Program-made: the position numbers and the translations under genes | Shown: positions 7,220 to 8,546 of the stretch, one piece after another | How the letters are laid out: every line of letters starts with the position of its first letter | Numbering within the stretch: position 1 is the first letter of the stretch | Notes under the pieces: generated by a model | Told to the model about the DNA's origin: nothing | Databases searched by the model: none | Seen by the model: only the letters and a program-made list of their open reading frames with translations | From: a virus | Lineage: Duplodnaviria; Heunggongvirae; Uroviricota; Caudoviricetes | Reading direction: 5' to 3' (one strand) | Length of the DNA stretch: 42,138 nucleotides | IMG/VR virus record: IMGVR_UViG_2737471818_000002 | Location: 1 to 42,138 of that record

Positions 7220-7277
7220 TTAATTTGCTCCAGATACAAGGAATCGCCGCAGCATGGCTACGGTGAATTTTGGGCAT

Positions 7278-7300
7278 AAAAAAACCCAGCCGAAGCTGGG
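7278..7300 (-). terminator. Intrinsic terminator upstream of tailspike gene
   Basis: CCCAGC-CGAA-GCTGGG hairpin followed by a run of 7 U on the minus-strand transcript. Confidence 0.5.
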
Positions 7301-7465
7301 TCGTTGCGTTGGTTATCTGTCAGTAGTTATGTACTGGCTGAAGGATTTGTACAAAAAACAACCTGACGGTGGGTTAATTTTTGCATTTACCTGGGCCATA
7401 TTGACTACTTATAAAATGAGATCAATATTTAATCGCCCAATAACGGGGGTATGTTGAGGTATATC

Positions 7466-7645
7466 ATGGCGAAAAAACCAGGTGAAAACACAGGAAAAAA
7501 CGGCGGAATATACCAAGAAGTTGGCCCGCGCGGCGGTAAGAAAGACAATTTTGCCACCGTCAAGGACAACGAAAGGCTTCCGCCAACAACAAAGCCAGGT
7601 CATGGCTGGGTATTGGATAAGCGAACTCCAGACAGCAAAAAGTAA
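7466..7645 (+). CDS. YjzC-like small protein, opposite strand to the late operon
   Basis: 59-aa ORF with RBS GAGGT 5 nt upstream; KPGENTGKNGGIYQEVGPRGG...ERLPPTT...W pattern recalls the YjzC-like family. Confidence 0.4.
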   Translation: MAKKPGENTGKNGGIYQEVGPRGGKKDNFATVKDNERLPPTTKPGHGWVLDKRTPDSKK

Positions 7646-7658
7646 TAATCAAGCCGGT

Positions 7659-8024
7659 TCACTCCGGCTTTTTGATATGTCGCTCGCAGAACTCAACAAG
7701 CCTGCTCATTAAGTAGCAGTAAGTCTCGTTGGCTCTTCCTGGTTCAACATCAACACCTACCCTTGAGCAGATATCGAATGCCATGTGAGCGCACTCATGG
7801 GCAATAGTAGATAGTTTGCCATTGAACACGCCTATCACATGCAAAACACCATTCTCGCTACTCATTGTATGAGACGCTCCGTTGGCGTCCGAGTCATGCA
7901 CGTCAACGCCAAGTTTTTGATGCAGGCGTTGCCATTCTGGAAAGTCTCTACAAAACACAATTGTACCGCTCTCAAAGAGCGGTACGAGCATCTTTGGTAC
8001 GTTTCCAATGTTAACTTTTTTCAT
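7659..8024 (-). CDS. Hypothetical small zinc-metalloprotein with HExxH motif
   Basis: 121-aa ORF with AGGA RBS; motif IAHECAHMAFDICS plus several Cys/His; no confident family assignment. Confidence 0.45.
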   Translation of the reverse strand: MKKVNIGNVPKMLVPLFESGTIVFCRDFPEWQRLHQKLGVDVHDSDANGASHTMSSENGVLHVIGVFNGKLSTIAHECAHMAFDICSRVGVDVEPGRANETYCYLMSRLVEFCERHIKKPE

Positions 8025-8058
8025 GGTATCCTGCGCAAAACTAAGGAGAGTTAATTAT

Positions 8059-8544
8059 ATGAAAAAATCACTGTTAATTATCCCGCTTCTGCTGGCTGGG
8101 TGCGCAAAAGTAAGCGACTATCAGGCAAGTTGCGAGCAACGCTATCCAAAGCTTAGCGATATGGCTAATTGCCTTGATGCCAGCTTGAAGAACGACTCTC
8201 GCATGGCATCAGCACCAACACCTAAGCTGTATGTCCTTGCTGCGAAGATGCTCGGGCAAGGTGTCGATGAAGGCAAGATAAGTGACACACAGGCAAGACT
8301 TGAACTTCAGAATCTTTATGTTCAATTACAAAGCCAAGAACAAGCACAACAAATAGCACAAAGCCAAGCATTCCAGCAGGCTTTATTGAATTATCAGGCT
8401 GTAAACACAATGCAAGCGATCGAGCAAAAAGCGCGCCAGCCTGTTATAACTCAACCTTACCCAACACGCGTTGACACATATACAAACTGCAATTCAGGAT
8501 TTGGAAACACCGTCACATGCAACAGTAGCAGCAACATTAGATAA
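8059..8544 (+). CDS. Prophage-encoded lipoprotein, candidate superinfection-exclusion or host-interaction factor
   Basis: ATG at 8059 with strong RBS AAGGAGAG; signal peptide MKKSLLIIPLLLAGC with lipobox LAGC; Gln-rich coiled-coil C-terminus; opposite strand to structural genes. Confidence 0.65.
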   Translation: MKKSLLIIPLLLAGCAKVSDYQASCEQRYPKLSDMANCLDASLKNDSRMASAPTPKLYVLAAKMLGQGVDEGKISDTQARLELQNLYVQLQSQEQAQQIAQSQAFQQALLNYQAVNTMQAIEQKARQPVITQPYPTRVDTYTNCNSGFGNTVTCNSSSNIR

Positions 8545-8546
8545 AG

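Follow-up and report, generated by a model that had tools for sequence, protein, structure and literature searches.

In the P22-like prophage studied here, the interval that separates the last DNA-ejection gene from the tailspike gene carries three small genes on alternating strands, which raises the question of whether they work as one antisense arrangement or as separate units that happen to be neighbors. The window (the whole stretch of DNA analysed) comprises 42,138 nucleotides, positions 1 to 42,138 of IMG/VR virus record IMGVR_UViG_2737471818_000002. The interval proved to be an already described variable accessory region of P22-like prophages and is largely ordinary, with a predicted outer-membrane lipoprotein gene in the slot that sieA holds in P22. 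Our overall reading, to which we assign a probability of roughly 0.75, is that this is an ant moron in which hkcC would be a passenger of the late operon, two separate plus-strand units would surround it, and one of these would express an exchangeable, envelope-targeted cargo. The features on which this reading draws are as follows.

5327..7219, minus strand: tailspike gene, homologous to P22 gene 9 and last in the late operon; Pfam Head_binding, E=3e-57
7283..7302, minus strand: terminator hairpin, leftover of a deleted P22-type ant (tANT in HK620); terminator scan
7337..7392, plus strand: remnant of the mnt 3' end with a weakened tMNT hairpin, inside the pseudo-ORF 7254-7457
7401..7429, plus strand: predicted sigma-70 promoter of orf59a, TTGACT / 17 nt spacer / AATATT; promoter scan
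7435..7449, plus strand: short inverted repeat just past the -10 element, candidate 5'-UTR stem-loop or operator
7466..7645, plus strand: orf59a (HkcD in HK620), 59 aa, probable YjzC family member, 98% identity to P22 orf59a
7651..7670, either strand: terminator common to the convergent orf59a and hkcC; folding and terminator scan
7659..8024, minus strand: hkcC, 121-aa HExxH...E zincin-like protein, 99% identity to HK620 HkcC and the P22 ORF
7970..8050, plus strand: region equivalent to P22 PsieA plus Shine-Dalgarno TAAGGAG (8044-8050), overlapping hkcC codons 1-18; 77/79 bp
8059..8544, plus strand: cargo gene in the sieA slot, 161-aa predicted outer-membrane lipoprotein; lipobox Cys15, conserved Cys
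8547..10664, minus strand: gene 16 homologue, ejection protein, 75% identity to HK620 gp16
26033..26551, minus strand: Q-type late antiterminator, context outside the interval; Pfam Phage_antitermQ, E=1e-25

Identity and layout of the interval

The P22-like prophage adjoins tRNA-Arg(CCT), at which it would be integrated. The plus strand of the window carries an integrase gene and GtrA-, GtrB- and GtrII-type genes, and the minus strand carries the Q antiterminator, an Rz lysis gene, the ejection genes and a tailspike with a P22 head-binding domain, the tailspike's N-terminal domain being 72-92% identical to those of P22 and HK620. The region between genes 16 and 9 was named the "ant moron" by Villafane et al. 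2008 (PMC2629481), where hkcC and orf59a were already published as ant moron genes without assigned function. In the window, the interval is bordered by the homologues of genes 16 and 9 inside the late operon, and its hkcC and 59a sequence is common with other ant morons. The mnt-arc-ant genes (immunity I), which are not universal in ant morons, are absent, and all that is left of them is terminator remnants and the final codons of mnt. Immunity I has been lost as in the window in 13 of the 81 loci of our sample (80 IMG/VR contigs with hkcC at 98-100% identity, plus the window), and likewise in HK620. The interval would be an HK620-like form of the ant moron from which the mnt-arc-ant immunity region has been lost.

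At the DNA level, positions 7220-8052 are 98% identical to phage HK620 and positions 7337-8052 are 97.5% identical to P22. Homology to P22 begins at 7337, within the final mnt codons (alignment A3), and the tMNT-type hairpin that follows reaches only -6.7 kcal/mol (z -0.8). The hairpin at 7283..7302 folds at -14.5 kcal/mol and is followed by U7; in the HK620 record, its counterpart is described as 'associated with remnant of P22 ant gene'. The ORF at 7254-7457 was considered as a gene and rejected, as it is a read-through of the ant-terminator and mnt 3' remnants and has no PGAP call. For HK620 (Clark et al. 2001, record AF335538), the annotated order is gene 9, tANT, tMNT, HkcD (the orf59a equivalent), a bidirectional tORF59A, hkcC, hkcB and gene 16. 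The P22 record annotates mnt, orf59a, t_mnt, PsieA and sieA, and its hkcC ORF is unannotated but intact. A literature search for the name 'hkcC' returned unrelated acronyms only.

All three genes proposed from the sequence alone are present, at 7466-7645 (plus), 7659-8024 (minus) and 8059-8544 (plus), each with a PGAP annotation and conserved homologues. PGAP (NCBI) annotates all three in E. coli genomes, and diverged homologues with conserved motifs were recovered for each (alignments A1, A2 and A4). The hkcC/orf59a block was matched in 876 of 5426 complete E. coli genomes (~16%), and the complete three-gene arrangement is found in at least 18 E. coli genomes. The sequence-only reading had described the three small genes as different from those of P22; this does not hold for hkcC and orf59a, whose products are 98-99% identical to the P22/HK620 proteins, and it does hold for one gene, that of the lipoprotein in the sieA slot. 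The lipoprotein gene is a new cargo in a known slot, and the region itself was already known. An Rfam search over positions 6900-8900 assigned no RNA family, the sole match being a sub-threshold istR.

Transcription units and exchange of the cargo gene

The late-operon genes of the window all lie on the minus strand, so hkcC is co-directional with them and orf59a and the lipoprotein gene are the antisense ones. The HExxH gene had been taken for an embedded antisense gene; the arrangement is in fact the reverse, as hkcC lies on the strand of genes 20, 16 and 9 (the last being the tailspike gene) in 81 of 81 loci and the plus-strand genes are antisense inserts. The order of the late operon on the minus strand would be the Q antiterminator, genes 20 and 16, hkcC and the tailspike gene. 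In P22, late transcription is known to pass through the region and on into gene 9 (PMC2629481). From the strand of hkcC, we read the gene as a probable passenger of the late operon, without a recognisable or conserved promoter of its own. A consensus scan of positions 7000-8800 returned no hkcC promoter on the minus strand, which is weak evidence in that the scan also missed PsieA, and no conserved promoter was found when the upstream regions of hkcC homologues were compared. In two siphovirus loci (L091 and L099), a terminator-like hairpin and T-run stand directly before the ribosome-binding site of the hkcC homologue, and a hairpin was found in a third (L100). The gene would most likely be expressed only when antiterminated late transcription reads through local terminators, which is the most economical reading. 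Separately, codons 14-21 of hkcC can fold into a strong hairpin (-17 kcal/mol), but a role for it in attenuation or insulation was rejected, since diverged homologues do not keep it.

The first plus-strand unit, that of orf59a, would run from its own conserved sigma-70 promoter to a strong terminator, the stem of which extends into the 3' end of hkcC. The promoter at 7401..7429 was the sole promoter-like site returned by the consensus scan of 7000-8800, and in an alignment of seven diverged loci, from podoviruses and siphoviruses, little but TTGAC and AATATT is conserved ahead of the orf59a homologues (alignment A5). The inverted repeat at 7435..7449 is preserved in the same alignment by paired changes (CCC/GGG, GCCG/CGGC and GCTC/GAGC); with a comparison of seven sequences, a stem-loop or operator at this position is a lead rather than proof. 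The terminator starts 5 nt past the orf59a stop. On the plus strand it folds at -14.5 kcal/mol (z -4.3) and is followed by UUUUU, and on the minus strand it reaches -11.7 kcal/mol and the U-tract is weaker. The last four codons of hkcC (K118-E121) and its stop codon are encoded in the loop and 3' arm of this terminator. The element is t_mnt of the P22 record and the bidirectional tORF59A of the HK620 record. With these signals, orf59a would most likely be expressed from the prophage. Neither per-gene data for sieA, orf59a or mnt nor anything on hkcC is found in the supplements to the P22 RNA-seq paper.

The second plus-strand unit begins inside hkcC. As had been read from the sequence, the divergent hkcC and lipoprotein starts (the complement of 8022-8024, and the ATG at 8059) are exactly 34 bp apart, and the lipoprotein promoter region overlaps the HExxH coding sequence: 55 of the 79 bp of the P22-matching upstream region are hkcC codons 1-18. 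Positions 7970-8048 match the fragment upstream of sieA in P22 at 77 of 79 bp, and homology between the window, HK620 and P22 runs through the first hkcC codons and the intergenic sequence and ends right after TAAGGAG (alignment A3). In P22, a fragment of 85 bp upstream of sieA sufficed for single-copy sieA exclusion at galK with no galactose induction (Leavitt et al. 2024, PMC10883804); PsieA itself counts as no more than a 'putative' promoter and was missed by our consensus scan. Judging from this near-identity, the lipoprotein gene appears to be expressed from the same promoter and Shine-Dalgarno region as sieA in P22. This platform, which is fixed and lies partly within the first 18 hkcC codons, would drive an exchangeable cargo gene, and the lipoprotein unit would most likely be expressed from the prophage. 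The lipoprotein gene is convergent with the gene 16 homologue, their stops being 2 bp apart. Since a folding scan found no terminator between the two stop codons, the lipoprotein mRNA probably extends antisense into gene 16.

Across the 81 loci, the gene divergent from hkcC belongs to one of 12 unrelated families, and it always starts 25-34 nt from the hkcC ATG. The lipoprotein occupies the slot in 18 loci, SieA in 13, a 129-aa secreted protein in 12 and an hkcB-like protein in eight, and the remaining families are rarer. A signal peptide, transmembrane segment or lipobox is present in 11 of the 12 families. The slot of a diverged P22-like locus (L093) holds a Rap1a-like immunity protein, so the cargoes need not be anti-phage. 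We also considered whether the type of cargo tracks the C-terminal type of gp16, as expected of co-evolution between cargo and target, and rejected this because the two reassort freely.

These observations bear on the idea that the three genes are one unit, in which a plus-strand transcript joining orf59a and the lipoprotein gene would silence the HExxH gene, either through antisense pairing or by interfering with its transcription. The geometry behind it is real, with hkcC flanked by plus-strand genes and divergent starts 34 bp apart. Antisense control is also found nearby in P22 (sar RNA) and BTP1 (STnc6030), and lipoprotein RNA, with no terminator behind its gene, probably does run antisense into gene 16. 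However, the strong, canonical terminator directly after the orf59a stop makes the joint transcript that had been proposed unlikely, and the lipoprotein gene has its own conserved promoter and Shine-Dalgarno platform. Nor do the three genes travel together: they assort independently across the 81 loci and other genera, hkcC and orf59a being found with 11 other cargoes and, in siphoviruses, without any slot gene, and the lipoprotein gene being found without hkcC or orf59a in five loci of other genera. We consider the one-unit arrangement very improbable, and the antisense circuit of the sequence-only reading is mostly unsupported. It is plausible that expression is divided between the lysogenic and lytic states, for which this locus offers a precedent.

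HkcC and its convergent partner

HkcC (phrog_1365) carries the motif HECAH at residues 76-80. It belongs to a large family in which the only invariant residues are those of HExxH and a glutamate 20 residues past the second histidine, which is new here: in 58 sequences of 24-74% identity, the invariant columns are H76, E77, H80 and E100 only. An AlphaFold2 model of HkcC (pLDDT 89.4) places two strands, a helix, two further strands, the HExxH helix and the glutamate helix in this order, with the motif residues on helices 71-88 and 100-116, an arrangement that would fit a minimal zincin. The 20-residue spacing of the glutamate is that of thermolysin. Weak sequence matches to thermolysin and neutral protease were obtained (E 0.09), as were weak SprT-like matches in 10 of the 58 family members (best E 1e-4). 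HkcC of the window has no Pfam match, and all matches of the family to SprT-like (PF10263) fall below the gathering threshold. The HkcC model had no significant match to solved peptidases, and no Pfam or NCBIfam match linked HkcC to ImmA/IrrE-type antirepressor peptidases.

Compared with gluzincins and SprT-like zincins (PF10263; thermolysin-type), HkcC is alike in its predicted HExxH and third-ligand-type glutamate 20 residues downstream on the next helix, all of them invariant, but its matches lie below the family thresholds and it would be a stand-alone zincin of 121 aa. We infer a protease activity for HkcC. The protein may instead not be a peptidase, its HExxH...E binding a metal in a structural or regulatory role; we think this possible though unlikely, as H76, E77, H80 and E100 are the sole invariant columns over 58 diverged sequences with the glutamate spaced at 20 residues, the weak matches are to thermolysin, neutral protease and SprT-like proteins, and the order of secondary structure in the model is compatible with a minimal zincin.

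The partner gene, orf59a, matches phrog_3202 (E=7e-31). Against Pfam YjzC (PF14168) its product scores 19.1 bits (E 0.0017), below the gathering threshold of 25 bits. It resembles this family in its length of about 60 aa, in its GEN and PPT motifs and in a chain of homologues that reaches PF14168-carrying proteins and UniRef 'YjzC family protein' entries, and differs from it in the sub-threshold score. On sequence grounds it is probably a divergent member of the family.

The orf59a gene is present in 70 of the 81 loci, always convergent with hkcC at a distance of 19-20 nt, and is missing in the other 11. That the hkcC-orf59a pair is also found in siphovirus tail operons is new here. In these operons, hkcC homologues (57-63% identity) are paired with YjzC-like genes (~80% identity), and the convergent geometry is kept. 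The pair lies between the tail chaperone gene and the tape-measure gene in each of the 5 operons examined, which come from three metagenomic or draft contigs and from Klebsiella oxytoca and Rosenbergiella. The same convergent pair is present in the diverged P22-like locus whose slot holds the Rap1a-like protein (L093). Distant HkcC family members are found in sense orientation in structural operons and have no YjzC partner. A search with a degenerate DNA pattern returned only 4 distant loci, and alignment A4 was too diverse for a locus scan. One siphovirus-type locus also carries ant-like and Arc-like genes.

The recurrence of the pair suggests a reading in which hkcC and orf59a form a functional two-gene system that moves as a unit, with a late zincin and a YjzC protein made in the lysogen; the protease might, for example, remove or process the small protein or a target on induction, or the two might be a defence and counter-defence module. 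The constant convergent arrangement at 19-20 nt from the hkcC stop in 70 of 81 loci, its preservation in all five siphovirus operons and in the diverged P22-like locus, the terminator that overlaps the last hkcC codons, and the invariance of the catalytic-type residues all speak for it. Against this, orf59a is absent from 11 loci, distant HkcC members in structural operons lack a YjzC partner, YjzC-family proteins are widespread outside phages, and the linkage may merely reflect the common terminator and co-transfer. We hold such a system to be rather unlikely. It is compatible with our preferred reading of hkcC as a late-operon passenger and orf59a as a separate plus-strand unit.

A broader version is more speculative still, and we give it correspondingly less weight. 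Here the pair would be a self-contained mobile element of podovirus and siphovirus late operons, in which the lysogen's YjzC protein and the late zincin act on one another or share a target, e.g. in an envelope or immunity reset at induction; the sieA platform would serve as an expression socket, and the lipoprotein would represent a new outer-membrane class of exclusion factor acting against the ejection-protein conduit.

The lipoprotein and comparison with known systems

The cargo of the window (phrog_6067) begins with the N-terminal signal sequence MKKSLLIIPLLLAG-C15, in which the lipobox LLAG-C15 conforms to [LVI][ASTVI][GAS]C. G14 and C15 do not vary in any of 26 homologues (51-97% identity), and neither do Cys25, Cys38 and Cys154. 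Sorting of bacterial lipoproteins follows the +2 rule, and the Ala at +2 predicts that this one is sorted to the outer membrane. Its structure model is of low confidence (pLDDT 62.8). Sequence searches of Pfam, NCBIfam, PADLOC and the PDB matched the lipoprotein to no characterised family, no similarity to characterised exclusion proteins was detectable, and no PADLOC defence model matches it. Homologues were found in Yersinia ruckeri, Providencia, two Tatumella species and one metagenome-assembled genome; in all five loci the gene lies at the gene 16/tailspike junction, antisense to both, and hkcC and orf59a are absent. The family is restricted to this junction of P22-like prophages, in at least 6 genera.

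The lipoprotein would most likely protect the envelope of the lysogen, the leading guess being that it prevents incoming P22-like phages from delivering their DNA. This functional assignment is by analogy, resting on the position of the gene, the envelope-targeted alternative cargoes, and SieA and STnc6030, which are the sole characterised products of the junction and are both exclusion factors. STnc6030 is an antisense RNA of BTP1 that the lysogen makes at the gene 16/tailspike junction and that excludes BTP1 (Owen et al. 2020, PMC7067206). The lipoprotein might alternatively be a host-fitness or virulence factor that is not concerned with phage exclusion, for example in protection from type VI secretion or in serum resistance as with lambda Bor. 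The Rap1a-like immunity protein in the same slot elsewhere and the lack of a matching PADLOC defence model favor such a role, but the strict tie of the family to the gene 16/tailspike junction in at least 6 genera and the exclusion activity of both characterised junction products do not, and we regard it as rather doubtful. Phage exclusion at the lysogen's envelope is the function we prefer.

What has been rediscovered here is a documented hypervariable accessory region, and the general view of P22-like phages is unchanged. The platform at the gene 16 boundary, with at least 12 alternative cargoes, nearly all of them envelope-targeted, provides a list of candidates for exclusion or envelope protection, among which SieA alone has been studied. 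The lipoprotein family, present in several genera of Enterobacterales, could be an outer-membrane counterpart of SieA and a probe of the assembly of the gp7/gp20/gp16 conduit. As for hkcC, which has been listed without function since 2001 and is present in P22 itself, its invariant metallopeptidase motif and its YjzC-family partner are open to P22 genetics.

The closest relative of the interval is the HK620 ant moron, which has the same position, strand layout, tANT and tMNT remnants, bidirectional terminator and loss of mnt-arc-ant, and whose hkcC and orf59a/HkcD proteins are 98-99% identical to those of the window. In HK620, however, the slot next to gene 16 holds hkcB (109 aa, with an N-terminal membrane anchor), whereas in the window it holds the unrelated 161-aa lipoprotein gene. 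STnc6030 resembles the lipoprotein gene by position, both being expressed or encoded at the gene 16/tailspike junction in antisense to the late operon, but STnc6030 is non-coding and the locus in the window codes for a conserved protein. SieA types A-C have a conserved FxRYPxEAxxFNK motif (PMC10883804). The lipoprotein lacks this motif, has no BLAST link to the SieA cluster and contains no hydrophobic 19-mers, and is not a SieA. P22 SieA is a multi-pass inner-membrane protein, in contrast to a lipobox protein without such hydrophobic segments. Hofer is said to have described P22 sieA as a superinfection-exclusion gene in 1995. The two genes nevertheless occupy the same slot in the same orientation, behind the same upstream promoter and Shine-Dalgarno region (77/79 bp) and convergent with gene 16.

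Coding-sequence and promoter signals of the hkcC-orf59a pair

The terminator shared by the convergent genes hkcC (7659-8024, minus strand; HExxH zincin-like protein) and orf59a (7466-7645, plus strand; YjzC family) lies at 7651-7670, and its loop and 3' arm encode the final four hkcC codons, K-K-P-E, and the stop (7659-7673). Many hkcC homologues likewise end in KKPE or KKPA (alignment A1, hkcC homologues), which may be because the terminator encodes the last hkcC codons. Codons 14-21 of hkcC contain a perfect 10-bp hairpin (7963-7985, minus strand; -17 kcal/mol, z -4.3), which lies a short way upstream of the PsieA-like region of the opposite strand. 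Diverged hkcC homologues do not keep this hairpin.

On the orf59a side, a short inverted repeat (7435-7449, plus strand) lies directly 3' of the -10 element. It is kept in seven diverged loci through the paired changes CCC/GGG, GCCG/CGGC, and GCTC/GAGC, with an AATA-rich loop (alignment A5, orf59a upstream regions), and may act as an operator or as a stem-loop in the 5' UTR.

The hkcC-family profile retrieved a weak local match (E about 0.4-0.6) to PDB chains 11fw, 11go, and 9pnr, which bear the name "Virion DNA-directed RNA polymerase". The matched segment is internal (...IYLVS...TLIHELVHAS), and the match is probably due to chance, though the HExxH motif falls within it.

Cargo of the slot divergent from hkcC

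The C-terminal 30 residues of the lipoprotein family (8059-8544, plus strand, in the window) take the form of two alternative tails, ...QPYPTRVDTYTNCNSGFGNTVTCNSSSNIR and ...PPVQLQNNNVTTNCTTYGNQTRCQSY, both of which carry a Cys-x7-Cys pair (alignment A2, lipoprotein family). This arrangement suggests a swappable, disulfide-bonded tip. In the diverged P22-like locus L093, a secreted protein (209-562) with a match to Rap1a (PF18602) fills the slot that diverges from the hkcC homologue. Rap1a is a type VI secretion immunity protein, and thus the slot cargoes may not all target phages.

Ejection genes and prophage surroundings

The gp16 homologue of the window (8547-10664) is 705 aa long, versus 609 aa in P22, and is 75% identical to HK620 gp16. 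For its neighbour gp20, identity to the HK620 protein falls to only about 33% across the stretch present in comparison locus L001, and identity to the Yersinia ruckeri prophage is 62% in the first 213 residues. The ejection genes form a mosaic. The E. coli match closest to the window (EC23HZZ201, locus L010) carries an IS1A element (5849-6326) immediately past gene 16, at the place taken by gene 20 in the window; this prophage copy is probably defective.

The window begins (1-5295) with the following order, the glucosylation cassette being directly downstream of the tailspike gene:
1009-1083, tRNA-Arg(CCT), adjoining the prophage
1209-2402, integrase gene
2556-5295, GtrA/GtrB/GtrII-type O-antigen glucosylation cassette

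The pair outside P22-like phages

Small membrane proteins that have a zinc-ribbon at the C terminus recur beside or near the hkcC-orf59a pair in siphovirus tail operons:
L091, 8771-9136
L092, 5664-6218
L098, 5710-6072
L099, 4568-4936

Their PF13248/DUF2545 matches are weak; the motif KCPFCAE...KCKHCGSD was read in the L091 and L092 proteins. In a further siphovirus tail operon (L100, 5001-7258), hkcC and orf59a are accompanied by an antirepressor-like gene (P22_AR_N) and a gene of the Arc family, and therefore a cluster resembling the "ant moron", the variable accessory region between genes 16 and 9 of P22-like phages, is also present outside these phages.
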